Shown here: in pieces, positions 10,611-54,669 of the stretch | Layout of the letters: the number at the start of each line of letters is the position of its first letter | Position numbering within the stretch: position 1 is the first letter of the stretch | Source: Candidatus Doudnabacteria bacterium | GTDB taxonomy: Bacteria; Patescibacteriota; Doudnabacteria; UBA920 | Assembly (NCBI GenBank): GCA_963768175.1 | Contig: CAVYGQ010000001.1 | Coordinates: 5,908-69,907, forward strand | Direction of reading: 5' to 3' | Length of the DNA: 64,000 bases | Translations under genes and position numbers: made by a program | The notes under the pieces: model-generated | The model's input: the letters and a program-made list of their open reading frames with translations, nothing else | Told to the model about the DNA's origin: nothing | Database searches by the model: none

Positions 10611-11489
10611 ATGATCTTAGTTATCTCATCTAAAAAAGTTTACGCTGCGAAAAGGCTGGCATGGGAAGCAGGCATTAGGAATCAAGAATTGCGGATTATG
10701 GATATGCAGGATTTGATTACCTGTAATTTTCAGATTGATCCAAACAAGTTTGATGCCCTGTACATCCGCGATCCTTATTTAAAAGACAGTCCAAAATACA
10801 CTCCGCAAATCGTCAAACTTGCAAAAAAATTTAAAGCCGCGGGCAAAAAGGTTGTTGATTCCGCGATTGCCGACGGGGAACTCGGCCAAGGCAAATGGGC
10901 GGATTATCAGAGGCTTCAAAAAGCCGGCTTGCCAATTCCAAAGACCGGTTTATTGTCTGACTACCCACTACCCACTATTCACTACCCACTAATTCTCAAA
11001 TGGACCTACGGCTTTAAGGCAAAAAATGTTTTTCTGATAAAAAACCAGCAACAGCTAAAAAATATCCTGCCCCTGCATCTCAAAAAAGAATGGCTGGTTC
11101 AGGAATTTATTAAAGCGGATTATGAATATAAAGTTATTACCGTCGGATACAAAGCATTGCCGGTGGTGTTGAGGTTTTCCACCAGAGGCGGATCCGCCTC
11201 TGGTGGAAAGATTAAAGACAACGGTTTTAGGACGGATTTCAAATCCGCATGCAGCGTGCCCATTTATGGGCGATCCAGACAGCCGATGAATCGGCACGCT
11301 ACCATTGTTAAATTTGCCGAAAGGGCATCGAAAATCTTAAACCGCGAACTGGCCAAAGTTGACATTTTGGAAGCCAAAGGCAAATTCTATATTCTGGAAG
11401 TTAACCGCTTCCCCGGCCTTAAGAGTTTTGAACAATTGACAGGCTATAATGTCTTTAAGGATTTTTTTAAATATCTTGTTTTAAAATGA
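10611..11489 (+). CDS. ATP-grasp family protein (RimK-like ligase)
   Basis: EWLVQEFI...YEYKVITVG ATP-grasp core. Carries the in-frame palindrome insert at 11178-11208 encoding GGSASGG. Confidence 0.65.
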   Translation: MILVISSKKVYAAKRLAWEAGIRNQELRIMDMQDLITCNFQIDPNKFDALYIRDPYLKDSPKYTPQIVKLAKKFKAAGKKVVDSAIADGELGQGKWADYQRLQKAGLPIPKTGLLSDYPLPTIHYPLILKWTYGFKAKNVFLIKNQQQLKNILPLHLKKEWLVQEFIKADYEYKVITVGYKALPVVLRFSTRGGSASGGKIKDNGFRTDFKSACSVPIYGRSRQPMNRHATIVKFAERASKILNRELAKVDILEAKGKFYILEVNRFPGLKSFEQLTGYNVFKDFFKYLVLK

Positions 11490-11605
11490 CTTGCGTAATT
11501 CGTCCGTTTAAGTTATAATGAGTTTATTAAATTAATTCCACGCGCGGGAAATTTACTGCCCGTAGCGTGCAGAAAGGCGCATCGATTACATCGGGCGAAA
11601 AGTAA

Positions 11606-11881
11606 ATGCTTACTCCTAGAGAGAAGAATAATATCATAAAGAAATTCCAGACCCACAAGGACGACACTGGCAGCCCCGAGGTCCAGGTTGCCATACTGAC
11701 CAAGGAAATTGAGCAGGTTTCCGAGCATTTAAAAACCCACCGCAAAGACAACCACTCCCGCCGGGGGCTGCTTAAAATGGTCGGCAACCGCAGAAGGCTT
11801 TTGCGCTATTTAAAGAGTGAGGACGAAAAGCGTTTTGAAAAACTTGCCGAAAAACTAAAGCTTAAAGTGGATTTACAATAA
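11606..11881 (+). CDS. rpsO: 30S ribosomal protein S15
   Basis: [10 protein letters not shown]...[29 protein letters not shown] signature. Confidence 0.92.
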
Positions 11882-11955
11882 TTTTCTATTATAGTAAATC
11901 CATCCCGAACGCAGTGAGGGATCTCTTAAATTTATTTAAATTAAACACAAATACT

Positions 11956-12369
11956 ATGGTAGTTAAAAGTTCAAATTTTGAGGATTTTGACAAAGAGTGG
12001 ATGGAATTAGGCAAACAAATTTGTCAGGCAGTATATATCCATCCCATGATCCGAAAAATTAAGGATTCGTTGCAAAAAAAAGGATTTTTGACGCTGGAAG
12101 AAAAAAGCGAGTTTATTAATACTTGTGATAAGGTTAAATATGAAGTTATTTACGCCAAATTCGGTGATGAGCAATCAGAAGGGTATAAGAAGTTCAGCGA
12201 AAGTTGGAAACAGTGGTTTCAGGAAAAGGGTGTCGGCAGCAACCAAAACCGTGGCCAGCGCAACAGCGTGGAGCATATTTTATTCGGCAGTACGCCTGAT
12301 CCGGTGCGATTTTTAACCAAGTTTGAGGAAGAGGTAGTAAATAACCATAATCATAATCATAATCATTAA
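11956..12369 (+). CDS. Hypothetical protein with a C-terminal (NH)n tail, inserted between rpsO and pnp
   Basis: ORF with start moved to the ATG at 11956, because the upstream part overlaps a partial MITE copy. No recognisable domain. Confidence 0.4.
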   Translation: MVVKSSNFEDFDKEWMELGKQICQAVYIHPMIRKIKDSLQKKGFLTLEEKSEFINTCDKVKYEVIYAKFGDEQSEGYKKFSESWKQWFQEKGVGSNQNRGQRNSVEHILFGSTPDPVRFLTKFEEEVVNNHNHNHNH

Positions 12370-12531
12370 TTAGTAACTATTAAAGTTTCGGATGGTGAAT
12401 AGGTAGAGCGCGGATTTTTTAAGTCCACGTTTACATATTTGTCATCCTGAAATTCACCCCGGTCAAATAAAAATTTCTTTGAAATTTTTGATTCGCTTCG
12501 CGAATCATTTGACGGGGTAAAAAGGATTAAG

Positions 12532-14802
12532 ATGGGAGTCAAAAAAATTAGCGTAAAAATCGGCGGGGCCGATTTTAGTTTTGAGACCGGCAGGCTGGCC
12601 GGACAGGCCAGTGGAGCGGTTTTGGCGCGCGTAGGCGACACGGTGGTTTTGGCCACCACCGTAATGAGCGAGAAGGCCAGGGAAGGGATTGATTTTTTCC
12701 CGATGCTACTCGATTATGAAGAGCGGCTTTACGCGGCCGGTAAAATTAAGGGTAGCCGTTGGATAAAGCGCGAGGGCCGCGCCACCGACGACGCAATTTT
12801 AAAAGGACGGGTAATAGACCGCACGCTGCGTCCGCTTTTTCCGGAAGGCATGCGCAACGACGTGCAGGTTACGGCAACGGTTTTATCCATTGACGGCGAA
12901 AATGAACCGGATATGCTGGCGGTTAACGCCTGTTCCATGGCTTTGGCTGTTTCCAACGTGCCTTTTGACGGACCGGTGGCAGGCGCGAGAGTGGGTAAAG
13001 TTGACGGCAAATATATTATTAATCCAACCCATCAGCAGCAGGAAACGTCGGTAATGGATTTAATAGTCTGCGGCACCGGCGAACATATTATTATGGTGGA
13101 AATGGGCGCCAAATTGGTTAAGGAGGAAGAAATCGTGGAAGGCATTAAATTCGCCCAGCCGTTTTTAGGAGAGTTGGTTAAATGCCAAATTAAATTTGCC
13201 GAACAGGTTGGCAAACAAAAAAGCGAGCCAATTATGGTTTTGCCCAACGAAGCCGTAATGGCCAAGGTTAAAGAGCTGTTGACCGAGGATAAAATCGATG
13301 CCGCACTTTATGTTCCGGGCAAAGAGGTGCGCGAGGAAAATATTAAAAAATTGACCGAGGAAATTACGGCAGCCGTTAAATCCGTTTTGGGAGATCCGCC
13401 AGCTGGCGGAGAAGGCGTGAACGTGGAAAACGATACGGCTAAAGCCATGGATAAAATTTTAAAAAAATACCAGCAAAAGCAGATTTTGGAAAAAGAGCGC
13501 CGCGTGGACGGGCGCAAACTAAACGAAACCCGCCCTATAAGCTGCGAAGTCGGGGTCTTGCCGCGCACGCACGGCAGCGCCATATTTAACCGCGGCGAAA
13601 CGCAAGCTTTAACAACCGTTACGCTGGGCAGTAAAGGCGACGAGCAAACTTTGGACGGCATGGAAGACCCTACCGAAGGCCGCACCAAGCGCTATATCCA
13701 CCACTATAATATGCCGGGCTACAGCGTGGGCGAAGTTGCCCCGCTGCGGGGTCCCGGCCGCCGGGAAATCGGCCACGGCATGCTGGCCGAGCGCGCGGTG
13801 GAAGTTGTCTTGCCGCCGCAGGAAACTTTCCCTTATACCATGAGGCTGGTGTCCGAGATTATGTCCAGCAACGGTTCCACTTCCATGGCCGCCACTTGCG
13901 GTTCCACTTTGGCTTTAATGGACGCGGGCGTGCCGATTACCGCAATTATCGGCGGCTGCGCCATGGGTTTGGTAATGGACGAAGAAAATCCGTCGCGTTT
14001 TAAAGTTTTAACCGACATTGCCGGGATAGAAGATTTTAACGGCCATATGGACTTTAAAGTTACCGGATCGGAAACCGGCATTACCGCACTGCAGCTGGAT
14101 ATGAAGCTTAAAGGGCTGTCGGCGGATATCTTGGCCAAAGCTTTAGAGCAGGCCAAGCCTGCGCGCGTACACATCATCTCCAAAATGAAGGAAGCTTTGC
14201 CGGCTCCCCGGCCGGATTTGTCGCCTTATGCTCCCCGAATAACATCGTTTATGATTAAGCCCGACAAGATCCGCGAAGTCATCGGTAGCGGCGGCAAAAC
14301 CATTAACGAGATTATTGCCAACTGCCCGGGCGTGAAAATAGATATAGAAGACAGCGGTTTGGTTATGGTCACTTCCGTAGATGCGGAAGCCTCTGCCAAA
14401 GCGGTAAAATGGATTCAGGACATTGTGCGCGAAGTTGAGGCCGGAGAAATTTTTGAAGGCAAAGTCACCCGCTTGATGGATTTTGGCGCTTTTGTGGAAG
14501 TTCTGCCCGGCAAGGAAGGCTTGGTGCACATTTCCCAGCTGGCCAATTACCGGGTTAACCGTGTGGAAGATGTCTGCAAAGTTGGCGACACGATGAAAGT
14601 GCAAGTGTCGGAGATTGACGATCAAGGGCGGATTAACCTTACCCACAAACCGTTTGCGGGTCCGGCGCCCGAGGGTGCGGCCGGAGCGTTTGGCAGCGGC
14701 GACCGCGGCTACGACAATCCGCGTCCGCGCCGCCCGTCATACGGTCCTCGGCGGGGCTCGGACTCTTCGGGCAGCCGCAGGCCTCCGAGAAGGAATTATT
14801 AA
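12532..14802 (+). CDS. pnp: Polyribonucleotide nucleotidyltransferase (PNPase)
   Basis: Full-length 756 aa with two RNase PH domains, KH and S1 domains, and an R/G/P-rich C-terminal tail. Confidence 0.95.
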   Translation: MGVKKISVKIGGADFSFETGRLAGQASGAVLARVGDTVVLATTVMSEKAREGIDFFPMLLDYEERLYAAGKIKGSRWIKREGRATDDAILKGRVIDRTLRPLFPEGMRNDVQVTATVLSIDGENEPDMLAVNACSMALAVSNVPFDGPVAGARVGKVDGKYIINPTHQQQETSVMDLIVCGTGEHIIMVEMGAKLVKEEEIVEGIKFAQPFLGELVKCQIKFAEQVGKQKSEPIMVLPNEAVMAKVKELLTEDKIDAALYVPGKEVREENIKKLTEEITAAVKSVLGDPPAGGEGVNVENDTAKAMDKILKKYQQKQILEKERRVDGRKLNETRPISCEVGVLPRTHGSAIFNRGETQALTTVTLGSKGDEQTLDGMEDPTEGRTKRYIHHYNMPGYSVGEVAPLRGPGRREIGHGMLAERAVEVVLPPQETFPYTMRLVSEIMSSNGSTSMAATCGSTLALMDAGVPITAIIGGCAMGLVMDEENPSRFKVLTDIAGIEDFNGHMDFKVTGSETGITALQLDMKLKGLSADILAKALEQAKPARVHIISKMKEALPAPRPDLSPYAPRITSFMIKPDKIREVIGSGGKTINEIIANCPGVKIDIEDSGLVMVTSVDAEASAKAVKWIQDIVREVEAGEIFEGKVTRLMDFGAFVEVLPGKEGLVHISQLANYRVNRVEDVCKVGDTMKVQVSEIDDQGRINLTHKPFAGPAPEGAAGAFGSGDRGYDNPRPRRPSYGPRRGSDSSGSRRPPRRNY

Positions 14803-15089: not shown

Positions 15090-15175
15090 GTCATCCGGGC
15101 GTCATCCTGAGGCCGAAGGCCGAAGGATCTCAATAAAGAGATTCTTCGCCGCCAAAGGCGGCTCAGAATGACGCC
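15090..15175. repeat. MITE-like element, GGCGTCATCCTGA family (copy 2), immediately 5' of tgt
   Basis: gtcatccgggcgtcatcctgagg...gctcagaatgacgcc. The ORF-track ATG at 15168 lies inside its terminal repeat. Confidence 0.7.
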
Positions 15176-15185
15176 GTTATGTTTT

Positions 15186-16514
15186 ATGGCGTATTTTGAT
15201 TTAATAAAAAAAGTTTCGTCTGATAACGCGCCAACAGGCAGAGGTGTCCCCTCTGGAAGAGGGGACACCTCTGCCGCCAGAATCGGGATAATCCACACCG
15301 CGCACGGGGACGTAAAAACGCCGGCGTTTTTGCCTATTGGCACCAAAGGCACGGTTAAATCGGTCACCTCGGAAGAACTTAAGTTTTGGGGCGCGGATAT
15401 GATACTGGCCAATACCTATCATTTGTGGCAGCGTCCGGGCGACGGGCTTATTTATAAAGCTGGCGGCCTGCATAAATTTATGAACTGGAAAGGGCCGATT
15501 TTTACCGACAGCGGTGGGTTTCAGGTTTTTTCTTTGGCCAAAATGCGCAAGGTCATGGAAGCTGGCGTGTTGTTCCAGTTTGATCTGGACGGCAGGCAGG
15601 AAATTTTGTCGCCGGAAAAATCCGTGCAAATACAGGCCAACTTAGGCAGCGACATTGCTTTAATTTTGGACGATTTTCCGGGGTATCCATTTGAGTACGA
15701 GCGATCAAAAGAATCTATTGCGCAAACCAAGCGCTGGGCCGAGCGTGCGCAAAAAGAATATCAAAAAATAATGACGACCATATCCGCCGGAGGCGGATCC
15801 GCCTTTGGCGGAAATCCCGGGCAGAAATTGTGGGGGATTGTGCAGGGAGCTTCGTTTCCCGATTTGCGCAAACAGTCGGCAAACGATATGGCTAAGTTAG
15901 GATTTGAAGGATTTGCCATTGGCGGAGTGGCCGTGGGGGAGCCGCACGAAGAAATGATGAAAGCCGTGGAAGCATCCGTGCCTTTTTTGCCGGAATCCGC
16001 GCCAAAACATCTGTTGGGCGTGGGTACCCCTTTTGACATTGTGCAGGCAGTAAGCCGCGGCTGTGACACTTTTGATTGCGTTATCCCAACGAGGGAAGCG
16101 CGCCATGGTAGGCTTTATGTGTCCGCAAAAATCCACCCCTCTCTAACCCTCCCCCTCAAGGGGAGGGAAATTAAAGGAAAGCCAGGCGGTGTTGTTCCTC
16201 CCCCTGGAGGGGGGAGGCTAGGTGGGGGTGATGAATCTGTTGAAGGTTACTCAACAATTGACATCCGGCTTGAAAAATACAAAGAAGATTTTACGACAAT
16301 AGACAATACTTGCGATTGTTATTTATGCTTAAATCATACCAGATCTTATCTTCGCCACCTGTTTGCCGGCGGCGAGCCGTTGGCTATCCGTTTAGCTACC
16401 ATGCATAATCTGCGTTTTTATTTAAACTTGATGGCCAAAATCCGTAAAGCCATAGAATATGATTATTTTAACGAGATGGCGGAAAATTACAAAGATTATA
16501 CTAATATGGTATAA
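15186..16514 (+). CDS. tgt: Queuine tRNA-ribosyltransferase (tRNA-guanine transglycosylase), carrying in-frame palindromic inserts
   Basis: GIIHTAHGDVKTPAFLPIGTKGTVK and the zinc subdomain CDCYLC...H. In-frame inserts at 15238-15273, 15784-15811 and ~16135-16230. Confidence 0.85.
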   Translation: MAYFDLIKKVSSDNAPTGRGVPSGRGDTSAARIGIIHTAHGDVKTPAFLPIGTKGTVKSVTSEELKFWGADMILANTYHLWQRPGDGLIYKAGGLHKFMNWKGPIFTDSGGFQVFSLAKMRKVMEAGVLFQFDLDGRQEILSPEKSVQIQANLGSDIALILDDFPGYPFEYERSKESIAQTKRWAERAQKEYQKIMTTISAGGGSAFGGNPGQKLWGIVQGASFPDLRKQSANDMAKLGFEGFAIGGVAVGEPHEEMMKAVEASVPFLPESAPKHLLGVGTPFDIVQAVSRGCDTFDCVIPTREARHGRLYVSAKIHPSLTLPLKGREIKGKPGGVVPPPGGGRLGGGDESVEGYSTIDIRLEKYKEDFTTIDNTCDCYLCLNHTRSYLRHLFAGGEPLAIRLATMHNLRFYLNLMAKIRKAIEYDYFNEMAENYKDYTNMV

Positions 16515-16677
16515 TAAGTAAAATTATGAGGCAGTAATGTTGCATCACAATGGGCACCATTGTGTTGCACAATGGTGCCCATTGTATGGATCAACGATGA
16601 CAGAAAAAAATGATTTATCCAACTCCGCCACCCGCCGTCGCCAAGGCTATGGTGGACAAGAGGCTACGTCGGACAAG

Positions 16678-18095
16678 ATGGAAAAAATAGTATCTTTGTG
16701 CAAAAGGCGCGGGTTCATTTTTCCGGGCTCGGAAATTTACGGCGGGTTTGCCAACTCCTGGGATTACGGACCCGTAGGGGTGGAATTAAAAAATAATATT
16801 AAGCAGCTTTGGTGGGAGCGGTTCGTGCACCAGCGGGACGATATGGTCGGCATAGACGCGGCTTTGATAATGAAGCCGGTGGTCTGGGAAGCCAGCGGGC
16901 ATTTAAAAAATTTTTCTGATCCTTTGATAGAATGTAAAAAATGCCATAACAGATTTAAACCTGATCAGCTAGAGGGTATAAAACAAATTGAGAATTTGCC
17001 TGGGGAGTATCCTGCAGGTAAAAATGTCCATTCTGGTTTGGGATCAGGCGTGAGCATCGTTGGAGAAGATAATAAAAGAATTTTTATAAGCGAAAATACT
17101 AAATGCCCCACTTGTGGACAAAAATTTGAATTGAGCGATAAGCCTAAACAATTTAACTTAATGTTTAGAACCCATATCGGCCCTGTAGAATCTGATGAAA
17201 ACATCGTCTATTTCCGTCCGGAAACCGCGCAAGGGATGTTCGTACAATTTAAAAATGTTTTGGACACCAGCCGCAAAACCGTTCCGTTTGGAATTGCGCA
17301 GGTCGGTAAGGCTTTCCGCAACGAAATTACGCCTGGCAATTTTATTTTCCGCACGCGCGAGTTTGAACAAATGGAAATAGAGTATTTTATCCCGGTGCCA
17401 AAGTTGACCAAGACTGGAATAAGTATTTTGAAGATTGGCGGAAGCAGATGCTTTCCTGGATTAAAGATGATCTTGGTATTAAACTGAACCATATCCACGA
17501 GCTGGAAGTGCCGGAAAATGAGCGCGCGCATTACAGCAAACGAACCATTGATTTTGAATATGATTTTCCTTTTGGAAAATCGGAGTTGTATGGGTTGGCT
17601 TATCGCGGCGATTTTGATTTGGCGAACCATCAAAGAATGTCAGGCCAATCTTTGGAATATACCGACCCGCAGACCAACGAAAAATATCTGCCGCACGTAA
17701 TAGAGCCGACTTGGGGCGTGGACAGGAGCGTTTTGGCGGTTTTGTGCGAGTTTTATCGCGAGGAAGAAGACCGCGTGGTTTTGGCTTTGCCGCCAAAATT
17801 GGCTCCTTATAAAGTCGCGGTTTTTCCGCTTTTAAAGAACAAGCCGGAGCTTGTCGCTAAAGCAAAATCAATTTACGATGAATTGCGGAAATCTTTTGCT
17901 ACGGCCTGGGACGAGCGCGGCAATGTGGGCAAGCGTTATTATAGCCAGGACGAAATCGGCACGCCGTTTTGCGTTACCGTGGATTTTGACAGCTTGGAAG
18001 ATGGTATGGTAACCGTCCGCAACCGCGACAGCAAAGAACAGCCGAGGGTGAAGATTGAGGAATTGAAAAATTATTTGTTGGATAAAACCTTTTAA
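16678..18095 (+). CDS. glyQS: Glycyl-tRNA synthetase (alpha2 type), split over two frames by an apparent 1-nt indel near 17395-17405
   Basis: The 16537..17487 and 17448..18095 ORFs together give a complete GlyRS. Frame 1 (…EIEYFIPVPK) joins frame 0 (VDQDWNKYFEDWRKQM...). Start placed at MEKIVSLCKRRGF. Confidence 0.85.
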
Positions 18096-18097
18096 AG

Positions 18098-23754: not shown

Positions 23755-25275
23755 ATGGAAAAATTTTACATCACCACAACCTTGCCTTATGTAAACTCCG
23801 ATCCTCATTTGGGGTTTGCTTTAGAAATGGTCCAAGCCGACGTTATTGCCCGTTATCATAAGGATATTTTAAAGCAGGAAGTATTTTTTAACACGGGCAC
23901 CGATGAGCACGGGCTGAAAATTTTCCGCAAAGCCAAAGAAGAAGGCAAGGAAATCCAAAGCTACGTTAATGAATACGCGGAAAAGTTCAAAAAATTAATG
24001 CCGGCTCTGGGTATAATGCCGGATGTCCATTTTATCCGTACCACCGACCCGCACCATCTTGCCGCTTGCCGGGAGTTCTGGATAAGGTGTTTTAATAATG
24101 GCGATATTTATAAAAAAATCTATAAAGTTAAATATTGCGTAGGCTGCGAGCTGGAAAAAACCGAGAGCGATTTGGACGAAAACGGACGATGCTTGATCCA
24201 TCCGCATTTAAAAATTGAGCTTATAGACGAAGAAAATTATTTTTTCAGGTTTTCCAAATACCAACAGCCGCTTTTGGAATTGTACGGAAAAAATCCGCAA
24301 TTCGTGGTGCCGGATTTTCGCTTTAACGAAATTAAGCAATTCGTAAAATCCGGTTTGCAGGATTTTTCCGTCTCCCGTTTAAAATCCAAAATGCCCTGGG
24401 GCGTGCCGGTGCCGGATGACGAAAACCATGTAATGTATGTGTGGTTTGACGCGCTGATAAATTATGTGTCAACTTTGGGTTGGCCCTCCTCCGCTAAAGC
24501 TCCGGAGGGCAAGCCGTCAGAATTCGATCAATTATGGGGAACGCGCGAACACCCCAATTGCATACAAATCGCCGGCAAAGATAATATCCGCCAGCAGTCG
24601 GCCATGTGGCAAGCCATGCTAATGTCCGCCGGCCTTCCCAATTCCAAACAAATAATTATCCACGGCTTTATTAACAGCGGCGGGCAAAAAATGTCCAAAT
24701 CTTTGGGCAACGTGGCGGATCCGTATGTGATTATCGATCAGCTTAAATCTAAGGGCTTAACCGACGAACAAGCCATAGACGCCCTGCGCTATTATCTTGT
24801 GCGCGAAGTTTCCACCTTTGAAGACGGCGATTACACTTGGGAAAAGTTTGCGGAGAGCTATAACGCGGGCTTGGCGAATGGTATTGGCAATTTAACTAGC
24901 AGGATTATGAAGATGGCAATTAGTAACGATGTAAGTCCTATCAGTCCTATCAGTCCTATCAGTCCTATCAGTCCTATTTCGTCCTATCAGTCCAACCAGT
25001 TCTTGGATAACTACGAGCTCCAAAAAGCTTTCGACGCCGTTTGGCAAAAAATAAAAGCTTGCGATGAGTTTATCCAAAAAAACGAGCCATTCAAAGTTAT
25101 AAAGACAGACAAAGAAAAGGCCACGAAAGATATACAACATTTGTTATCGGAACAGCATCAGATCGCAACCGATTTAATTCCTTTCCTTCCCGCAACCAGC
25201 GAAAAGATATTAGCCGTTTTAAAAAATCCTAAATTGGAAAACATTCCAAAATTATTTCCGAGAATTGATTTTTAA
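23755..25275 (+). CDS. metG: Methionyl-tRNA synthetase, containing an in-frame (SPI)n microsatellite
   Basis: PHLGFA (HIGH-like) and KMSKSLGNV motifs. A 9-bp tandem repeat (agtcctatc) at 24934-24990 encodes SPISPISPISPIS. Confidence 0.85.
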   Translation: MEKFYITTTLPYVNSDPHLGFALEMVQADVIARYHKDILKQEVFFNTGTDEHGLKIFRKAKEEGKEIQSYVNEYAEKFKKLMPALGIMPDVHFIRTTDPHHLAACREFWIRCFNNGDIYKKIYKVKYCVGCELEKTESDLDENGRCLIHPHLKIELIDEENYFFRFSKYQQPLLELYGKNPQFVVPDFRFNEIKQFVKSGLQDFSVSRLKSKMPWGVPVPDDENHVMYVWFDALINYVSTLGWPSSAKAPEGKPSEFDQLWGTREHPNCIQIAGKDNIRQQSAMWQAMLMSAGLPNSKQIIIHGFINSGGQKMSKSLGNVADPYVIIDQLKSKGLTDEQAIDALRYYLVREVSTFEDGDYTWEKFAESYNAGLANGIGNLTSRIMKMAISNDVSPISPISPISPISPISSYQSNQFLDNYELQKAFDAVWQKIKACDEFIQKNEPFKVIKTDKEKATKDIQHLLSEQHQIATDLIPFLPATSEKILAVLKNPKLENIPKLFPRIDF

Positions 25276-25303
25276 ACCTTCAATCATAAATCTTAAATCT
25301 GTA

Positions 25304-26299
25304 ATGCTGATAGACACCCACGCCCATGTTAATTTTCGCAGTTTTAAAGACGATGCCAAGGAGACTTTGCAGCGGGCGCTTGACAGTGGCACTTGGGTAA
25401 TTAATGTCGGTTCGCAAATAGATACGTCGCGCCAGGCTGTGGAGCTGGCTAATCAGTTTGAAAAAGGAATTTACGCGGTGGTCGGGCTTCACCCGGAGCA
25501 TACGCATTCAAAATTTGTGGATGAGGAAGAAACGCACTTTTTAACTCGCGAAGAAAATTTTGACTACGAAAATTACAGGAAGCTGGCGCAAGATCCCAAA
25601 GTTGTAGGCATAGGGGAATGTGGACTTGACTATTATCGTTTGCCCGGAGGTGTTGAACCGCAAATCATTAAGCAAAAGCAAAAAGACGCATTTAGGTTAC
25701 AGGTAAAATTGGCGAAAGAATTAAATAAAGTTTTGGTCGTTCACAGCAGGCCGGAAAAAGACAGCGAAGAATTATTTAACGATTTAATTACGATCCTTGA
25801 TGAAGAACTCCTCCCTCGGCGTCATTCTGAGGGAGTGCAGCCGACTGAAGAATCTCAATCCAAGAATAAAGAGATCCTTCCCCCGGCTCAAGGCCGGGGT
25901 CAGGATGACGCCCTTCTTCGTTTTGAAGTTCATAGTTTTACCGGTAGCCCGGAATCTTTGCAAAAATTTCTTGACCGCGGCGCGTACGTCTCTTTTAACG
26001 GCATTATCACTTTTGGCCGACCAAAAAATAAAAATAGCCGGCCATCCGCCGAAGCTTTAGCGAAGGTGGATGATAAAACCGGCAATATGGAAAAATTGGT
26101 AAAACTGGCCCCGCTTGATAAAATAATATTGGAAACTGATTGCCCGTATTTGGCACCGGTGCCAAATCGCGGAAAAAGAAATGAACCCAGTTTTGTAAAG
26201 TTTGTGGCTAATAAGGTCGCGGAGATTAAGGGTTTATCAGTTGATGAAGTTGCCGAAGAGACAACTAAAAACGCTAAGCAATTATTCCTTCTCCCTTGA
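25304..26299 (+). CDS. tatD: TatD family hydrolase/DNase, with a ~95-nt MITE copy inserted in-frame
   Basis: MLIDTHAHVNF...GLHPEH...ETDCPYLAPVP motifs. In-frame insert at 25818-25912. Confidence 0.85.
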   Translation: MLIDTHAHVNFRSFKDDAKETLQRALDSGTWVINVGSQIDTSRQAVELANQFEKGIYAVVGLHPEHTHSKFVDEEETHFLTREENFDYENYRKLAQDPKVVGIGECGLDYYRLPGGVEPQIIKQKQKDAFRLQVKLAKELNKVLVVHSRPEKDSEELFNDLITILDEELLPRRHSEGVQPTEESQSKNKEILPPAQGRGQDDALLRFEVHSFTGSPESLQKFLDRGAYVSFNGIITFGRPKNKNSRPSAEALAKVDDKTGNMEKLVKLAPLDKIILETDCPYLAPVPNRGKRNEPSFVKFVANKVAEIKGLSVDEVAEETTKNAKQLFLLP

Positions 26300-26322
26300 G
26301 GGAGAAGGTGGCCGGAGGCCGG

Positions 26323-26676
26323 ATGAGGGGGATAGAAAGCCAAAAACTAATAACAATTGCCAAAAAGTTAAGGCAAAATCAAACACCTTGGGAAGCTAAA
26401 CTTTGGCAGTTGTTAAGAGGCAGGAGGTTTAGAAACTTCAAATTTAGAAGGCAATACCCAATCGGAAAATACGTAGCTGACCTTTGTTGTTTAAGTAAAA
26501 AATTGATTATTGAATTGGACGGAAGCGGTCATAATATGCCGGAAAATAAAGCTTACGATTTCAAGAGAAATAGGTTCTTTACACAGAAAGGTTATAAGGT
26601 TTTAAGAGTTTGGAATTCTGAACTAGATAATAATTTAGAGGGTGTGCTGCAGGAAATTTATAAATTTTTATCTTAA
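26323..26676 (+). CDS. DUF559 (Vsr-like endonuclease fold) protein
   Basis: KLWQLLRGRRFRNFKFRRQYPIGKYVADLCCLSKKLIIELDGSGH signature. Confidence 0.7.
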   Translation: MRGIESQKLITIAKKLRQNQTPWEAKLWQLLRGRRFRNFKFRRQYPIGKYVADLCCLSKKLIIELDGSGHNMPENKAYDFKRNRFFTQKGYKVLRVWNSELDNNLEGVLQEIYKFLS

Positions 26677-26680: not shown

Positions 26681-26760
26681 CCCCTCACCCGTCACCCTTC
26701 CGCCTCCGCCAAGGCTACGGCGGACAGGTCGGGTGACACCCTCTCCCTAAGGGAGAGGGG
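26681..26760. repeat. 80-nt element CCCTCACCCGTCACCC..CGCCAAGGCTACGGCGGACAGGTCGGGTG..CTCTCCCnnnGGGAGAGG (intergenic copy)
   Basis: Near-identical to 39081-39160, which lies inside purH. Confidence 0.7.
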
Positions 26761-26861
26761 TAATTGATTGCTATTATGCAAAAGTATAATCACAAAAAAA
26801 TAGAGGCCAAGTGGCCCTCCTTCGTCCGCCTTTGGCGGACTTCGGAGGGTAAACAAAAGAT

Positions 26862-29926: not shown

Positions 29927-30604
29927 ATGGTAATTATTGATTACAAAAAACAATATCACAAACAAATTATCGCCGCGGCGGTAAAAGCTTTAAAAAGCGG
30001 CAAAGCAGTCGTTTATCCAACGGACACCAGCTATGGTTTGGCCGTGGATGCGGGTAACATTAAGGCTATAAAAAAACTATATAAAATTAAAGAACGCCAA
30101 AGCACCCAGCCCGTTCATATAGTGGTGCCGTCTGTGGCTTACGCGAAAAGCATCGTGCAGTGGAATAATTCAGCGTTAAAACTTGTAAAAAAGTTTTGGC
30201 CCGGACCGCTGACTTTAATTTTGTGCCTGAAAGTTAAAGGTATGGGATTAAAAATGCTATCGGCCAAAACTGGAAGCCTTGGTTTAAGAATGCCGGACAA
30301 CCTGATCGCGATGGACTTAGCAAGATATCTTGGCCGGCCGATTACGGCGACCAGCGCCAATGTATCGGGCCGGGCAGATTGTTACTCGGTCAAAGAAATA
30401 ATCGGACAGTTTTCCGCCAAAGGCGGATCCGCCTCCGGCGGAAAAAACCAAAAATACAAGCCCGACATTATCATAAATGCCGGCAAATTGCCCAAGCGTA
30501 AGCCCTCCACTTTAGTCCGTGTTTTTGACGATGTGGTAAAAGTCTTGCGCCAAGGTCCTGTTACTGAAAAAGAAATATACAAGGCTTTAGATATTAGATA
30601 TTAA
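29927..30604 (+). CDS. tsaC: L-threonylcarbamoyladenylate synthase (YrdC/TsaC/Sua5 family), with an in-frame GGCGGATCCGCC palindrome insert
   Basis: AVVYPTDTSYGLAVDA...KERQSTQP...GPLTLIL motifs. Insert at 30413-30440 encodes GGSASGG. Confidence 0.8.
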   Translation: MVIIDYKKQYHKQIIAAAVKALKSGKAVVYPTDTSYGLAVDAGNIKAIKKLYKIKERQSTQPVHIVVPSVAYAKSIVQWNNSALKLVKKFWPGPLTLILCLKVKGMGLKMLSAKTGSLGLRMPDNLIAMDLARYLGRPITATSANVSGRADCYSVKEIIGQFSAKGGSASGGKNQKYKPDIIINAGKLPKRKPSTLVRVFDDVVKVLRQGPVTEKEIYKALDIRY

Positions 30605-33925: not shown

Positions 33926-33933
33926 AACAAAAC

Positions 33934-33965
33934 TTCTTAAAACCGCGGCCGCGGTTTTAAGAAGT
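33934..33965. terminator. Palindromic terminator CTTCTTAAAACCGCGGCCGCGGTTTTAAGAAG (the same core recurs at 51216-51247)
   Basis: Perfect GC-rich palindrome flanked by A- and T-runs. Confidence 0.6.
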
Positions 33966-38732: not shown

Positions 38733-40427
38733 ATGTACGAAAAAATGAAAACAGCGTTAATTTCAGTTTACAATAAACAAGGGATCGCGGAGTTTGTCAA
38801 AGACTTGGCGGATTTGGGATTTAAGATTTTGGCGAGCAGTGGGACGGCCAAGGTCTTGTCGGAGGCCGGAATTGAGGTGACGGATGTAGCTTCGCTTGTC
38901 GGCGGGGCGATTTTGGGGCATCGCGTGGTTACGTTGTCGCGTGAAATCCATGCAGGACTTTTGGCGCGGGATGTTAAGGGAGACCGTGATGAACTGGAAC
39001 GGTTAAACATTCCTTGGATAGATTTGGTTTGCGTGGACTTGTATCCGTTATCGGAGGAGATCGCTAAGTGGGATCAAAGAACCCTCACCCGTCACCCTTT
39101 CGCCTCCGCCAAGGCTACGGCGGACAGGTCGGGTGGCACCCTCTCCCAAAGGGAGAGGGAGAAAATGACTTCGGCTATAATCGAAAAAACCGATATAGGC
39201 GGGCCGGCAATGTTAAGGAGCGCGGCTAAAGGCAGGAGAATTGTAGTTTGCGACCCGGCCGATCGCCAATCCGTTATCAGCTGGCTAAAAAACGAGCAAC
39301 CCGACAAAGAACAGTTTATTGCATCGCTGGCCGCGAAAGCCGAAGCCGTGGTGGCGGATTATTGTTTGGTTTCGGCGCAGTATCACAGTGGCGGTGATTA
39401 TGAAGGCATGGTTGGGCATCAGGTTGTGGTCTGCAAATATGGGGAAAACGGATATCAAACGCCTGCCGGGCTTTATCGAGTTTCCGGCGGCGACGAGTTG
39501 GCTTTATTGAAATTTAAAGTTTTAGCCGGCATGGCCCCGAGTTACAATAATTGGGCGGATGTTGACCGGCTGCTTCAAACCATGACGCATATTGCCTCGG
39601 GGTTTGACGTGAATTTTCATCAGACGCCAAAAATCGCGGTCGGGGTTAAGCACGGCAATCCCTGCGGCGCGGCGGTCGGCCAAGATAAATCGGAAGTTAT
39701 CAAAAAAATGCTGGAAGGGGATTTGCGCGCGATTTTTGGCGGCCTTGTTATGGTAAATTTTCCGGTTGATGAAAGCTTGGCCGAAGTTTTATTAACTCAT
39801 AAAATGGAAAACGGCAGAAGGCTGCTGGACGGCATAATCGCGCTTTCGTTTACAACGGAAGCGATAAAAATGCTTAAACGAAAAGGCGACAAATGCCGGT
39901 TCATGGTTAATAAGGCATTATTGTCGTTAAATAAAAATTCTTTAGACATCCATAAACGCTTGCGTTACGTGCGCGGCGGATTTTTGGCTCAGCCGAATTA
40001 TACTTTTGTTTTGGATTTTAAGAGTAAATCGTTGGAGAAGGCCGGACAGGCAACCGGCGAGCAGGAAAAAGATATGCTGCTGGCCTGGGCCATTGGTTCA
40101 ACTTCCAACAGTAATACGGTCAGTTTGGTAAAAAACGGCATGTTGCTCGGCAATGGCGTGGGACAGCAGGACAGGGTCGGTTGCTGCCAGTTGGCGATTA
40201 AACGCGCTATTGATGCCGGCCATAAAATCCAAGGTGCCGTGGCTTACAGCGACAGTTTTTTTCCTTTTGTGGACGGGCCGCAGACTTTGGCCGATGCCGG
40301 AATTTCCGCAATTTTCGCTACCAGCGGCAGCGTCAGGGATGCGGACGTAAAAAAGTTTTGCCAGGAAAAGAATATCGGGTTATACTTAATACCCGACAGC
40401 GAGGCCAGGGGATTTTTTGGTCACTAG
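38733..40427 (+). CDS. purH: Bifunctional AICAR transformylase/IMP cyclohydrolase, with an 80-nt repeat element inserted in-frame
   Basis: MGS-like N-terminal domain (ISVYNKQGIAEFVKDLADLGFKILASSGT) and the AICARFT domain. Insert at ~39081-39160 encodes ...RTLTRHPFASAKATADRSGGTLSQRERE. Confidence 0.85.
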   Translation: MYEKMKTALISVYNKQGIAEFVKDLADLGFKILASSGTAKVLSEAGIEVTDVASLVGGAILGHRVVTLSREIHAGLLARDVKGDRDELERLNIPWIDLVCVDLYPLSEEIAKWDQRTLTRHPFASAKATADRSGGTLSQREREKMTSAIIEKTDIGGPAMLRSAAKGRRIVVCDPADRQSVISWLKNEQPDKEQFIASLAAKAEAVVADYCLVSAQYHSGGDYEGMVGHQVVVCKYGENGYQTPAGLYRVSGGDELALLKFKVLAGMAPSYNNWADVDRLLQTMTHIASGFDVNFHQTPKIAVGVKHGNPCGAAVGQDKSEVIKKMLEGDLRAIFGGLVMVNFPVDESLAEVLLTHKMENGRRLLDGIIALSFTTEAIKMLKRKGDKCRFMVNKALLSLNKNSLDIHKRLRYVRGGFLAQPNYTFVLDFKSKSLEKAGQATGEQEKDMLLAWAIGSTSNSNTVSLVKNGMLLGNGVGQQDRVGCCQLAIKRAIDAGHKIQGAVAYSDSFFPFVDGPQTLADAGISAIFATSGSVRDADVKKFCQEKNIGLYLIPDSEARGFFGH

Positions 40428-51184: not shown

Positions 51185-51389
51185 ATGTACGTTTGTTTAT
51201 CTGGTTGACTACAACTGCTTAAAACCGCGGCCGCGGTTTTAAGCAGTAACTTCTTCTTTCCACTCGCAAATGTTTGTGGGCGGGAAGAAGGGGACGAACA
51301 AACAGCGTTCGTCCCAAAGTGCATACCCTGAACCGCTAAAGAGCGGTTCAGCCGCTCGGATTGCCCGAGCAGCTCTGCCAGGATTTTGG

Positions 51390-52043
51390 CTATTTGTATA
51401 TGAGGCGTGTCGCCTCTCCCAGAGAGCGGAGGCGGCGCCAGTCAATTGCTACGGGGATTGGTGCGGAGACGGGGTACCATCTCCTCCAGCTCCCTTCTGA
51501 CCGGCAGGCCCAGATGGGACGGGCGAATTTGTCCACGAAAACTACCGTGGAAGATTCCGAGCCGCCGATGCGGGCGACCGCCTCTGCTGGCGGCCGAACG
51601 GCGGTCGTCCCCTTTGCGAAGCAGACTTCCTTCGGTCTGGGGTCGTTCCTGTGGGAGAAACACATCCGCCTTGCCTGTTGCAAGGTGACGTGCTCTTCTC
51701 GCCGTTCGGCCCGGATTTTGGGCAGGGTGCAGCGCTCCCACAGCCGGGTAGCTATCAGGCTCGCCGGGCACGGCCGGATGAGGAACTCCACCCCTCCGAA
51801 CTTCAATGTATGACCGATGTACGATCGGTCCAAACGCATACGGAATAGCGCGTCGACCACATACAGTGGGCCGACGGCCGCGTTGGTGTGATAGCCCTTC
51901 TGTCTTACTTCTTCAAAATCCCCCGGCTTTGGGGGCTCACTGAAGAAGCGGGTATGAATCCCATACCCGATCCCCGAAAGGATCGTGTCCTCCAGGCCGG
52001 CTACTCCAGCCTCGAAGTCCACTAGCAACAACATCTTCGCCAT
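51390..52043 (-). CDS. GC-rich (~60%) hypothetical protein (217 aa), inserted between tuf and rpsJ. Paralog of the frameshifted gene at 36761..37241.
   Basis: Strong RBS (AAGGAGTAAGAAA-ATG) at the MAKM start. Local GC is far above the window average. Hairpin clusters lie 3' of the gene (51270-51360), and an imperfect 24-bp inverted repeat (CTTATAGGGAGCAAACCAATTATC / GATAATCAATTTGTTCCCTATAAG) lies 5' of it (52100-52170). Confidence 0.5.
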   Translation of the reverse strand: MAKMLLLVDFEAGVAGLEDTILSGIGYGIHTRFFSEPPKPGDFEEVRQKGYHTNAAVGPLYVVDALFRMRLDRSYIGHTLKFGGVEFLIRPCPASLIATRLWERCTLPKIRAERREEHVTLQQARRMCFSHRNDPRPKEVCFAKGTTAVRPPAEAVARIGGSESSTVVFVDKFARPIWACRSEGSWRRWYPVSAPIPVAIDWRRLRSLGEATRLIYK

Positions 52044-52526
52044 TTTCTTACTCCTTCCCTTGCCAGTCACCTTGCGCCAGCTGGCGCAAAGCGAAATTCT
52101 GGGCTTATAGGGAGCAAACCAATTATCTTTAAAAGTTAGGATTTAGATAATCAATTTGTTCCCTATAAGAGTTGTTAGGAAAGAAATAAGGCAATCTATT
52201 TTATTTTGTCAAAGAACTAACCGATTGTCTGATGCCTAAATTTAGCTTCTCCACAAGGTCGAAGACTAAATATTTAGCATTCGGCAATACTGGCTCCAAA
52301 ATCTTATTTCAGATTTTGAAGTAATATTATAGCATATATTCAATTTTTTGTCAATACTGCCCATTTCTATTGACAAAAGCTACATCTTACTATAAACTAT
52401 TGCAAGTATGTTATTGTAACGCGGAAGGACGCGGAATTTAACGCGGAACAACGCGGAAGCTATATTTTTATCAATTAATAAGGCAAAAGTCGCCAGTTTT
52501 AGATTTGCGGACAAGGTCTTTAAAAA

Positions 52527-52850
52527 ATGGATAAGGAAGCCCAAGCTCCAAAGATTCGCATAAAGATAAAAGCTTATGACCATAAGCTTATTGATCAAAG
52601 TGCGAAACAGATTGTAGAGACCGCCAAACGCACCGGCGCGTCTATTTCGGGCCCGATTCCGCTTCCTACGGAAAAGACCAAGTATACCGTGCTTCGCTCC
52701 ACCTTTGTGCACAAAGACAGCCGCGAACAGTTTGAAATGCGCGTCCATAAACGGCTGATTGATATTTTAAACGCCACGCCAAAAACCATAGATTCTTTAA
52801 CGAACTTGAATTTACCGGCGGGAGTTGACGTAGAAATCAAAATGAGCTAA
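52527..52850 (+). CDS. rpsJ: 30S ribosomal protein S10
   Basis: [30 protein letters not shown]. Confidence 0.95.
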
Positions 52851-53087
52851 AGCTCATTTCTAGTTATAAAGTTGAAAGTTATAAAGTTAATAAAGTAAGT
52901 GAATTAGTTCTATTTTTCTTAGAGCTATAAGAAGGCCTAAGAAAATAACCCTCTCTGCCCGCCTTCGGCGGACATCTCCCCCAAAGGGGGAGAGAAATAA
53001 GGAAAGGCTATGTAGAAAACGATTTGCTCCAAACATTATCAAGTTTTTGATATTATTGCGGGCAAATCGGCCCCGCATTTTTATTTA

Positions 53088-53166
53088 GCAAGTAGGAAGG
53101 TAGCAAGTAGCTTGTAGCAACCGCAAGGCTACCGCCCTACTATCCTACAAGCTACAAGCTAAAGTT
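53088..53166. repeat. R3 family structured repeat, immediately 5' of the rplC start
   Basis: GCAAGTAGGAAGGTAGCAAGTAGCTTGTAGC...CTACAAGCTAAAGTT-ATG. Confidence 0.6.
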
Positions 53167-53856
53167 ATGAATTTTTTATTAGGCAGAAAATTAAATATGA
53201 CCCAGTATTTTGACGAAGCCACGGGCGAAGTAATCCCGGTGACCGTTATTTCGGCCGTCCCGATGACTGTAACGCAAGTCAAGGAAGCCGCCGGCAAAGA
53301 CAAATACAGCGCGGTTCAGGTTGGCATAGATAAAAAGAACCCTTCGACTTCGCTCAGGGCAAGAAAGCAGTCTAAATCTTTACAGGGACACTTAAAGGGT
53401 TTGGGTGCTTTTGCCGTTTTATCGGAGTTCAGGGTGAACGACGCAAACAGCTATAAAAAAGGCCAAAAGGTAGATATTTCCGGCTTTAAGCCTGGTGAAA
53501 TGGTCAATGTGGAAGGAACAAGCAAAGGCCGCGGTTTTGCCGGCGCGATGAAGCGCCACGGTTTTGCCGGTTTTCCCATGTCCCACGGCCACAACAGGCC
53601 GCGCTCTGTGGGATCTATCGGCCAACGTTTTCCCCAGCATACCAGAAAAGGTATGCGCATGGCCGGCCATATGGGCAACATCGGCGTTACCGTAAAGAAC
53701 TTGCAGGTTGTGGAAGTTGACCCCAAGAAGAATCTGATTAGCTTAAAAGGTGCCGTACCGGGACATCCTCACGCTTTGGTTAAAATAATTTCCACCGGAA
53801 GAGTTAAAGCTTTGGTAAAAGTGGAAGTTGTGAAGGAAGAGAAAAAGAAGAAGTGA
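53167..53856 (+). CDS. rplC: 50S ribosomal protein L3
   Basis: MTQYFDE...GKGFAG.MKRHGFAG. Confidence 0.95.
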   Translation: MNFLLGRKLNMTQYFDEATGEVIPVTVISAVPMTVTQVKEAAGKDKYSAVQVGIDKKNPSTSLRARKQSKSLQGHLKGLGAFAVLSEFRVNDANSYKKGQKVDISGFKPGEMVNVEGTSKGRGFAGAMKRHGFAGFPMSHGHNRPRSVGSIGQRFPQHTRKGMRMAGHMGNIGVTVKNLQVVEVDPKKNLISLKGAVPGHPHALVKIISTGRVKALVKVEVVKEEKKKK

Positions 53857-53866
53857 CGCCAGGCTT

Positions 53867-53967
53867 GGCGTCATCCTGAGTCCGCTCTAAGCAAATCTAG
53901 GCGGACGAAGGATCTCATCAAAGTTTAAGAGATTCCTCGGTCGGCTGCACTCCCTCGGAATGACGCC
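53867..53967. repeat. MITE-like element, GGCGTCATCCTGA family, between rplC and rplD
   Basis: ggcgtcatcctgagt...ctcggaatgacgcc. The ORF-track start of rplD at 53960 lies inside it. Confidence 0.7.
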
Positions 53968-53989
53968 GGATGACGGAAGTTATGAATCT

Positions 53990-54669
53990 ATGAAGACGAA
54001 TCTTTACAATCAAAAAGGTGAAACTATCGGCGATGTGGAATTAAACCCAAAGATTTTTGAGGTTAAACCCAACGAACATCTTTTAGCCGAAGCGGTAAGG
54101 ATACAATTATCCAATTCCCGCCAGGGCACCAGCAATACTAAAACCCGCGGCGAAGTATCCGGCGGCGGCAAAAAGCCCTGGAAGCAAAAAGGCACCGGCC
54201 GCGCCCGCGCAGGCTCAAGCAGAAGCCCGATTTGGCGCCACGGCGGCATTACTTTTGGCCCCGCTCAAACCGCAATTGGGAATTAAAAATCAACAAAAAG
54301 GCCAAGACCGCGGCGCTGTTTATGTCCCTTTCCGACAAGGCCAAAGAAAAGCAGTTTTTTGTCATTGACCAAATTGTTTTAGAAAACCCCAAGACCAAGG
54401 AATTCGTCGCAGTGTTAAAAGGTTTGGAAGCGAAGCTTTCCGTCGAAGGCGGATCCGCCTTTGGCGGAAAGAATTTGGGCAAGAAGCAAATGCTTATTCT
54501 TCCAAGAAAAGACGCAAAGCTAGTCCGTGCTACCAGCAATTTACAATCGGTCAATACCGTTTTGGCAAACAGCCTGAACCTGGTGGATGTAATAACGGCT
54601 AACAGCATTATCGCGCTTAAAGACAGTTTGCCGGTCATAGAGAAAGTATATCTTAAAAAAAGCAAGTAA
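53990..54669 (+). CDS. rplD: 50S ribosomal protein L4, with an apparent 1-nt frameshift near 54265-54290 and an in-frame GGCGGATCCGCC insert (54445-54467)
   Basis: Frame 2 [10 protein letters not shown]...[13 protein letters not shown] then frame 1 ...[20 protein letters not shown]... The shift lies at gggaattaaaaatc. Confidence 0.85.

Follow-up and report, generated by a model that had tools for sequence, protein, structure and literature searches.

Four conserved genes and a shared 30-nt unit

The window analysed here is a stretch of 64,000 nt of a Candidatus Doudnabacteria bacterium genome (GenBank assembly GCA_963768175.1, contig CAVYGQ010000001.1, positions 5,908 to 69,907 of the forward strand), and statements on the source genome refer to these 64 kb. 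Four unrelated conserved genes of the window, encoding a RimK-like ATP-grasp protein, the tRNA-guanine transglycosylase Tgt, TsaC, and the ribosomal protein L4 (rplD), each contain one copy of a short, GC-rich palindromic element (Table 1). An earlier note on this DNA had reported a 12-bp palindrome in these genes, and the report was borne out: the window contains GGCGGATCCGCC at exactly four places (11187, 15792, 30422, and 54448), against a chance expectation of 0.01, and the identity of the hosts was confirmed by Pfam. Chance as the origin of the copies was ruled out by dinucleotide-preserving shuffles, 0 of 100 of which gave four occurrences.

The repeat unit is thus real but longer than had been claimed. 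Both reading of the sequence and a repeat finder placed GGCGGATCCGCC at the core of an exact 30-nt unit in every copy, with the architecture TCCGCC-NNA-GGCGGA^TCCGCC-TNN-GGCGGA (carets mark junctions throughout), i.e. two abutting 15-nt mini-hairpins, each with a 6-bp GC-rich stem and a 3-nt loop. What the note had taken for CCAAAGG/CCTTTGG-type flanks is actually a loop together with the outer arm of the element itself, and its observation that the motif CCGCCAAAGGCGG also lies inside larger GGCGTCATCCTGA elements was correct, with occurrences at 15149 and 18560. Scanning the window with TCCGCCNNNGGCGGATCCGCCNNNGGCGGA, which has 24 fixed positions, returned the four copies with 0 to 2 mismatches and zero copies with 3 to 7 mismatches, i.e. 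none decayed in the window. As had been stated, the copies are in frame, all four starting at a codon boundary and being read as a Gly/Ser-rich peptide of the pattern S-(A/T/V)-x-G-G-S-A-(S/F)-G-G. Copies 2 and 3 are exact reverse complements of one another over 32 nt, and copy 1 consists of an imperfect unit, TCCACC...GGCGGA, joined to its own reverse complement; the symmetric imperfect arms of copy 1 were set aside as support for either mechanism discussed below, as this is one case against 0.23 expected and not significant. Solitary 15-nt units exist and are rare.

Table 1. Host genes, copies of the 30-nt unit, and solitary 15-nt units in the window
Feature	Position	Strand	Remarks
Host gene 1, RimK-like ATP-grasp protein	10611..11489	+	Pfam PF08443, E = 1.4e-14
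Copy 1, TCCACCAGAGGCGGATCCGCCTCTGGTGGA	11178..11207	+	Perfect 30-nt palindrome; STRGGSASGG in the RimK-like ATP-grasp gene
Host gene 2, tRNA-guanine transglycosylase (tgt)	15168..16514	+	Pfam PF01702, E = 8e-137; orthologue start is Met at 15186
Copy 2, TCCGCCGGAGGCGGATCCGCCTTTGGCGGA	15783..15812	+	SAGGGSAFGG in tgt
Host gene 3, tsaC (Sua5/YciO/YrdC family)	29927..30604	+	Pfam PF01300, E = 5e-45; PDB 9d3h
Copy 3, TCCGCCAAAGGCGGATCCGCCTCCGGCGGA	30413..30442	+	SAKGGSASGG in tsaC
Host gene 4, rplD (L4)	53990..54669	+	Frames 53990-54286 and 54232-54669, both matching Pfam PF00573
Copy 4, TCCGTCGAAGGCGGATCCGCCTTTGGCGGA	54439..54468	+	In rplD
Solitary 15-nt unit, TCCGCCTTTGGCGGA	26825..26839	.	Intergenic; nested in a larger hairpin CCCTCC...GGAGGG
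Solitary 15-nt unit, TCCGCCAAAGGCGGA	62121..62135	.	Intergenic

Comparison with close orthologues confirmed that all four copies are insertions. In the RimK-like gene, the syntenic relative L001, the Tgt of which shares 83% identity by BLASTP and 88% in an alignment of 27 orthologues, has the empty site AGATTT^AAGATA where the window reads AGGTTT(30 nt)AAGATT, which leaves no doubt about the boundaries and shows no duplication. The tgt insert is missing from 27/27 orthologues of 79-89% identity; the site in L001 reads ATA^AAC, and the window is additionally without 9 nt directly upstream. In tsaC, the ten residues at the site of copy 3 (site 1) are absent in 21/27 orthologues and present in 6/27. 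The empty alleles read CAA TTT^AAA AAT (P0125) and CAA TTC^AAA AAC (P0127, P0139) against CAG TTT(30 nt)AAA AAC in the window, and the exact 30-nt difference without duplication was also found against P0130. At a further site in tsaC, GT(A/T)^AAA, the element is present in P0139 and P0123 and missing from P0127; the tsaC genes of P0127 and P0139, of 93.8% nucleotide identity, differ by this insert. The closest orthologue of rplD, in L135 (74% identity), is uninterrupted at AAT TTT^AAA GAG, and the window has the element plus four extra codons. The clean, exact 30-nt sites are thus those of the RimK-like gene and tsaC, and those of tgt (9-nt loss) and rplD (four extra codons) are less clean. 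The earlier note had suggested that orthologue alignment might reveal a target-site duplication; at the clean sites, the alignments gave exact 30-nt boundaries with none duplicated.

The same note had asked whether the inserts fall in surface loops, which is answered in part. AlphaFold modelled TsaC with a mean pLDDT of 84.5 and placed the insert (residues 163-172) in an unstructured stretch between the helix 155-162 and the strand 181-184, with residues 166-173 below pLDDT 50. The structure model of Tgt had a mean pLDDT of 39 and was unusable, so the alignment to PDB was taken instead. Solved structures were in line with insertion. Gaps of 13 aa opened against the best-matching solved bacterial Tgt (10fb) and, for TsaC, against PDB 9d3h, and the rplD product showed gaps of 4 and 11 aa against Bacillus subtilis uL4 (3j3v_E). 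Furthermore, Thermus thermophilus AspRS shows an exact 10-aa gap opposite the SAKGGSASGG of the AspRS of another carrier.

Further irregularities concern the host genes and one other gene. The split of rplD over two frames coincides with one C apparently missing from a run of C near 54258 compared with L135. A class II aminoacyl-tRNA synthetase (tRNA-synt_2b core and HGTP anticodon-binding domain) at 16537-18095 is likewise split over two frames near 17405-17415, its pieces having been aligned to the L001 orthologue only. Both splits look like long-read assembly errors rather than pseudogenes. Residues 320-362 of Tgt (window ~16125-16255) form a hypervariable insertion hot spot with the nested GC hairpins CCCTCCCCCTCAAGGGGAGGG and CCTCCCCCTGGAGGGGGGAGG, at which orthologues carry unrelated inserts of 0-90 aa. 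Some of these, PPSPRLRRTAPDS, are taken, from their sequence, to be a translated D2-type repeat family of the window. The L001 orthologue of the RimK-like gene (5057-6148 in L001) has a 63-nt hairpin insert, an ILRSAQDD-type insert, and an N-terminal extension derived from a GGCGTCATTCTGA element, all absent in the window.

Distribution, unit structure, reading phase, and turnover

A scan of one genome per species with the pattern AGGCGGATCCGCCTNNGGNGGA, in which 19 fixed bases were required, returned at least 120 loci, and all those listed come from metagenome-assembled genomes (MAGs). Going by record titles, from which all taxon labels are taken, about 60 of the listed carriers are Patescibacteria (Saccharibacteria, Kaiser-, Lipton-, Doudna-, Moran-, Uhr-, and Parcubacteria, and others) and 14 are Omnitrophota, the other labels being Kiritimatiellae, Lentisphaerae, Verrucomicrobiota, Planctomycetes, Elusimicrobia, Ignavibacteriota, Bacteroidota, Chloroflexota, Desulfotomaculaceae, Deltaproteobacteria, Firestonebacteria, and 'Gammaproteobacteria', so that the labels of the listed carriers span about ten phyla. 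Some carrier contigs are long (1.6 Mb in Ignavibacteriota, 130-290 kb in Omnitrophota), and one Omnitrophota host gene encodes Lnt, a protein of diderm bacteria; the long contigs and the Lnt host indicate that the spread beyond Patescibacteria is real. Among the matches listed, 58 host open reading frames (ORFs) match 106 Pfam families, and the hosts include DnaG primase, DEAD-box helicases, several aminoacyl-tRNA synthetases (among them AspRS), Hsp70, RNA polymerase beta/beta', CTP synthase, PGK, ATP synthase, and GyrA; the RpoC copy in L084 reads KVSAKGGSASGGK. In the Kiritimatiellae MAG STD1_155 (L009 at 4587 and 6408, L005, and L066), the 30-mer lies in both orientations within a longer repeated context, gcataggaattt(30)caatccgtcttt, and may there be part of a larger repeat.

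Other collections were nearly devoid of the element. Viral contigs gave six loci, with true copies confined to L123 and, in part, L125, and neither PLSDB plasmids nor GenBank phages gave a real match, so that a phage or plasmid vector was rejected as a candidate. The S10-operon loci around rplD from metagenomes (80 loci, 660 kb) contained no copy and one usable empty site. This near absence elsewhere indicates that the carriers are a subset of genomes, among which the window is rich, with four copies per 64 kb.

The three bases adjoining each end of 108 non-redundant copies, from the matches listed, are mostly T at the left end and mostly A at the right, the symmetrised frequency of T being 56%, 82%, and 63% at positions -3, -2, and -1, which gives TTT^AAA as the consensus of the insertion junction. 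The two sides behave independently: both, one, or neither conformed in 71/34/3 copies, compared with 72.6/31.9/3.5 expected at p = 0.82. Because empty alleles already have these bases, the flanks reflect a target preference and are not part of the insert. Two filled alleles differ from their empty relative in the base directly 5' of the element, which is a T in the filled ones (GTA to GTT at tsaC site 2, TAC to TTT in pnp); divergence or conversion may be responsible.

The two loops mainly follow the patterns RRA and TYY, their differences being for the most part transitions (largely G<->A and C<->T), and they are complementary to each other in 20/107 copies compared with 15.9 by random pairing (p = 0.15). 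In 1.7 Mb, adjacent perfect 6/3/6 GC-rich hairpins were separated by zero gap in 111 cases and by any other gap in 6 (n = 117). Eight of the zero-gap pairs are heterodimers, in which pairing is confined to within each unit (stems TCAGCC/GGCTGA, CCAGCC/GGCTGG, CCCGCC/GGCGGG, CCCTCC/GGAGGG, CTCGCC/GGCGAG, and TGCGCC/GGCGCA), and these have the same T/A flanks as the standard element. One heterodimer occurs twice in L170, in opposite orientations and with identical 3-nt flanks. Neither composite elements bounded by two 15-mers nor tandem arrays of at least three units were found in about 1 Mb of loci. RNA folding predicted a very stable hairpin of -24 to -30 kcal/mol (z-score down to -7), favouring a single long hairpin as the functional fold; this was rejected, however, as the loops are non-complementary and the heterodimers pair only within units. 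The 15-nt mini-hairpin, not the long hairpin, is therefore the constrained unit, the zero-gap rule and the shared flanks being independent of the stem search. Selection on mRNA structure was likewise rejected, there being no excess of G.U on the sense strand, and comparison with known RNA families in Rfam gave only sub-threshold noise (best RAGATH-30, with 18 bits where the gathering score is 59.5). Mismatches on the coding strand were G.T in 7 cases and A.C in 8, and this equality points to DNA, in either strand, as the structured molecule rather than mRNA.

Reading phase was counted for the copies, among the matches listed, that lie wholly within an ORF of 120 codons or more (n = 83). The phase S-A-x-G-G-S-A-x-G-G was used by 73/83 copies, P-P-x-A-D-P-P-x-A-E by 6/83, and R-R-R-I-R-L-R-R-K by 4/83. 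Candidate target sites in the coding sequence of the window are available for the corresponding phases at 360:263:72, i.e. about 52% for the Gly/Ser phase, so target availability does not account for the bias. Furthermore, the second variable codon on the coding strand encodes Ser in 42 copies and Phe in 16, compared with 21:31 at the mirror-image position, an asymmetry that is possible only if the peptide is made and selected. As read from these codon counts, the element is translated in one phase. The earlier note had named selection for frame-neutral insertion as one of two possibilities, beside a dedicated insertion mechanism; selection does appear, but because the unit is always 30 nt and frame-neutral anyway, what is selected is the reading phase (73:6:4 against 360:263:72).

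Copies are gained and lost between close relatives. L001 has no copy in its RimK-like gene or tgt and carries its own copy, FSARGGSASGGD, in the C-terminal tail of polynucleotide phosphorylase, which is absent from the pnp gene of the window. Placed on a neighbour-joining tree, the six TsaC orthologues with a filled site 1 are dispersed and each has a sister that is empty, which implies either repeated insertion at one site or repeated precise loss. Some tsaC copies are decaying, with TTC TCC in P0122 and GAA in P0129, and in P0131 (L134, 3001-3735) a 42-nt second hairpin element with the core CGCTCGGGC-GGA-GCCCGAGCG is nested just 3' of the central GGATCC of the 30-mer. The decay and the nested insert show that copies are not strongly protected once inserted. 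Yet all window copies are intact, an indication of rapid gain and loss. Genes of 94% identity that differ by a copy, together with a tsaC site filled in 6/27 scattered orthologues, indicate on comparative evidence that the element is, or recently was, mobile.

Possible mechanisms and alternative readings

Considering these results, we regard it as probable, at roughly 60%, that the repeat is a 30-bp non-autonomous mobile DNA element composed of two abutting 15-nt mini-hairpins. As the comparisons show, the element enters DNA as an exact 30-bp block at a T-rich/A-rich junction (consensus TTT^AAA) without target-site duplication. As 30 is a multiple of 3, insertion would never break the frame, and intragenic copies would survive mainly where they were inserted at a codon boundary that yields a flexible S-A-x-G-G-S-A-x-G-G in a surface loop. 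The form recognised would be the folded DNA hairpin, on either strand, and not mRNA, because the stems are invariant or covary within a unit, the loops drift, and G.T and A.C are about equal on the coding strand. A hairpin-specific activity on DNA would then have to be supplied in trans. This may be a single-strand-hairpin enzyme of an IS200/IS605- or RAYT-like, 'peel-and-paste' HUH kind, inserting and excising the element precisely, an identification made by analogy that we put forward as tentative and rather doubtful; it is preferred because this is the known chemistry that moves hairpin-ended DNA precisely without duplication. Copying of the whole 30-mer is supported by the L170 heterodimer pair and by the reverse complementarity of copies 2 and 3. 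The enzyme or a vector would need to have spread horizontally to account for the same stems in many phyla.

Several observations weigh against such an element. The window ORFs scanned included no transposase of whatever type, and the scan turned up only a syntenic tyrosine recombinase (9216-10442) and a DUF559 Vsr-like nuclease (26296-26676). Both flanks are constrained symmetrically, whereas IS200/IS605 needs a target on the 5' side only, and the GTAG/CGTC tag of RAYT-mobilised REPs is absent. The 24 stem positions are identical across phyla without a demonstrated vector, viral contigs, plasmids, and phages hardly carrying the element. The breadth of the spread is itself touched by the 'Gammaproteobacteria' labels, which seem doubtful, as the AspRS in L019 is missing the usual bacterial insertion domain. 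The covariation in heterodimers arises partly by construction, the search having demanded perfect stems, which leaves the zero-gap preference and the T/A flanks as the independent support. Finally, independent loops, independent flanks, and heterodimers suit an origin unit by unit at least as well.

Such a unit-by-unit origin is the main rival and would proceed by the healing of breaks, which we regard as rather improbable. A blunt break at TTT^AAA would expose two 3' ends in TTT, and each would serve as a primer after pairing through 1-3 nt of microhomology with the A-tail of a small RNA or DNA template that is self-complementary, TCCGCC-NNN-GGCGGA-AAA; a polymerase or reverse transcriptase would add one 15-nt unit per end, and blunt joining would give U1 followed by the reverse complement of U2. 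This one assumption covers the independent loops and the independent, degenerately T/A-rich flanks, and it accounts for the heterodimers, the exact GGA^TCC junction, the missing duplication, the rare solitary units, and the perfect palindrome that copy 1 forms from an imperfect unit. No template RNA or DNA and no enzyme was found, however, and we know of none; the identical L170 heterodimer in both orientations argues for copying of the whole 30-mer; and the junction is never ragged, though the search pattern required an exact junction. If the difference between the 94%-identical genes was an excision, its precision would also be unexplained.

Other readings were considered far less credible. 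Removal or skipping of the 30 nt at the level of RNA or translation, by a mini-intron or by 'byp'-like ribosomal bypassing that leaves the proteins unaltered, is very unlikely. The stable RNA hairpin (-24 to -30 kcal/mol) would be in keeping with such a process, and GC-rich hairpin inserts in yeast mitochondrial genes are reportedly bypassed (work of Lang et al. in 2014). Removal or bypassing would, however, ignore phase, stop codons, and amino acids, yet the phases stand at 73:6:4, Ser exceeds Phe on the coding strand only, and neither an excess of G.U on the sense strand nor a matching Rfam family was seen. Slightly less likely still is an old, vertically inherited insertion kept uniform by gene conversion or selection and not currently mobile, a reading to which the filling of the same tsaC site in several Doudnabacteria orthologues and the near invariance of the stem codons, compared with 36-57% identity at fourfold sites outside the element, would lend themselves; it is contradicted by filled orthologues among empty sisters and the difference between 94%-identical genes, by the different sites filled in L001 and the decaying copies in P0122, P0129, and P0131, and by an identical sequence in unrelated genes of many phyla. 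Some library protocols involve palindromic linkers that have a restriction site at their centre, all listed genomes are MAGs, and the window has two homopolymer-type frameshifts, all of which might suggest a sequencing, assembly, or linker artefact. Against an artefact, which we find barely credible, stand the variation of the loops and of some stem bases, the sister units with other stems, the TT^AA sites, the single phase, the decay and nested inserts in copies, and the origin of the records from many projects and assemblers.

The mobile element that we favour could be the smallest self-contained mobile DNA so far, moving horizontally among at least ten phyla of uncultured bacteria by hairpin-specific machinery or by break healing that adds one hairpin unit per DNA end, a broader claim that we consider possible and hold with less than even confidence. 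If true, it would act as a natural 'linker-insertion mutagenesis' of RNA polymerase, primase, L4, and aminoacyl-tRNA synthetases, and would mark permissive surface loops of essential proteins. It would also explain some of the odd Gly/Ser-rich insertions and the length variation of CPR proteins, giving a practical warning for the annotation, alignment, and phylogenomics of MAGs. If confirmed, protein-inserting selfish DNA would extend beyond Rickettsia and organelles to much of the uncultured bacteria. The 30-mer with its TTT^AAA targets would furthermore offer a tiny, defined substrate with which to trace the enzyme behind the movement of hairpin repeats, a problem that Rickettsia palindromic elements (RPEs) and mitochondrial GC clusters pose as well.

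Other repeats of the window and known systems

The window contains further repeats. The TatD gene (25265-26299) carries a 97-nt palindromic element at 25817-25913, GGCGTCATTCTGA...TCAGGATGACGCC, in frame, L129 having a different insert at the same spot, and a second insert of 19 aa, GRPKNKNSRPSAEALAKVD, lies further on; further repeat families of the window have thus likewise entered genes without breaking the frame. An ORF for a DUF559 (Vsr-like, PD-(D/E)xK) nuclease, in place of which L129 has a different, unannotated ORF, opens the segment 26296-26839 and is followed directly by a 78-nt nested-hairpin repeat (26682-26759, with a second copy at 39082-39159) and then by the solitary unit at 26825-26839. 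An AT-rich 97-nt repeat with its own inverted repeat lies between ribosomal protein genes at 54669-54765 and 61277-61373 (99% identical), and 34-nt palindromes centred on a NotI site (AAAACCGCGGCCGCGGTTTT), just 3' of genes at 33932-33965 and 51214-51247, look like terminators. Positions 1-8082 have 53% GC compared with about 44% elsewhere and hold giant ORFs at 71-2560 (829 aa) and 2488-8082 (1864 aa) with 123-nt periodic repeats.

No description of the 30-nt element was found in open-access papers and bioRxiv preprints, in which the matches were primer sequences and general repeat papers. The supposition of the earlier note that it is new thus stood as far as the open-access literature goes, but the element is not peculiar to this kind of genome, given its occurrence under about ten phylum labels. 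The likeness to RPEs drawn in that note is apt. RPEs are palindromic repeats that lie in frame in many unrelated conserved functional genes, encode a fold-compatible peptide, and have no known transposase (PMC10969869, PMC3733652), and the 30-mer likewise lies in frame within unrelated conserved genes. RPEs are, however, about 100-150 bp in length, fall into about ten families, and occur in Rickettsia only, whereas the present element has 30 bp, one dominant stem sequence, a Patescibacteria host, and about ten phylum labels, and is set apart by length and host. Like REPs, hairpin units of 20-40 nt that are often dimers (REPINs), it consists of units, here of 15 nt, that abut as dimers. REPs carry a GTAG or CGTC tag (PMC3733652), and intragenic REP dimers that code for 20-30 aa are reported from Opitutus terrae, R. 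conorii, Thauera, and Xanthomonas (Di Nocera et al. 2013, PMC3733652). In contrast to the tagged REPs, which are mostly extragenic and species-specific and have RAYT genes beside some copies, the element is untagged, as seen in a logo of element and flanks, mostly intragenic, and shared across phyla, and no RAYT was found among the window ORFs scanned.

Mitochondrial GC clusters, of which yeast GC42 is an example, resemble it, as do double-hairpin elements and 'byp' elements, all being short hairpin modules rich in GC whose stems are conserved and whose loops vary, the GC clusters lying in an AT-richer genome. Some mitochondrial GC clusters lie inside coding regions. They are, however, organellar and mostly intergenic, have a putative AG target-site duplication, and are in part bypassed by ribosomes, whereas the present element lies in bacterial chromosomes, without duplication, and is translated. 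In mitochondrial GC clusters, as in the present element, loops are far more variable than stems, units merge and shuffle, and presence/absence turnover is fast (PMC4478555). With IS200/IS605, the element shares the missing duplication and would share a precise excision, to judge from window copies that are either intact or absent, from filled sites scattered over the tree, and from 94%-identical genes that differ by the insert. IS200/IS605 elements (Y1 HUH) make no target-site duplication, have hairpins at their ends, excise precisely, and move as single-stranded DNA. They are, however, 0.6-2 kb long, encode tnpA, and have subterminal hairpins and a specific, one-sided target of 4-5 nt. The 30-mer shows the same degenerate T/A preference on both flanks, each independently of the other, and no Y1 HUH TnpA was found among the window ORFs scanned.

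PARCELs are palindromic coding repeats with a patchy and apparently horizontal distribution among distant microbes (PMC2996958), with which the element shares coding sequence of dyad symmetry and a patchy occurrence across distant microbes; they differ in forming 25-residue units in tandem arrays in ORFs for surface proteins and not single inserts in housekeeping enzymes. Terminal inverted repeats are shared with miniature transposable elements with inverted repeats (MITEs), the whole element being palindromic (TCCGCC...GGCGGA); it has 30 bp compared with about 50-500 bp in MITEs and makes no target-site duplication, and no longer, IS-like parent element with the same ends was found in about 1 Mb of loci. 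By its 30 bp, the missing duplication, and the same stems across about ten phylum labels, the element is set apart from MITEs, tagged REPs, RPEs, and the other systems, and it seems to be a mobile element of very small size that had not been described before.

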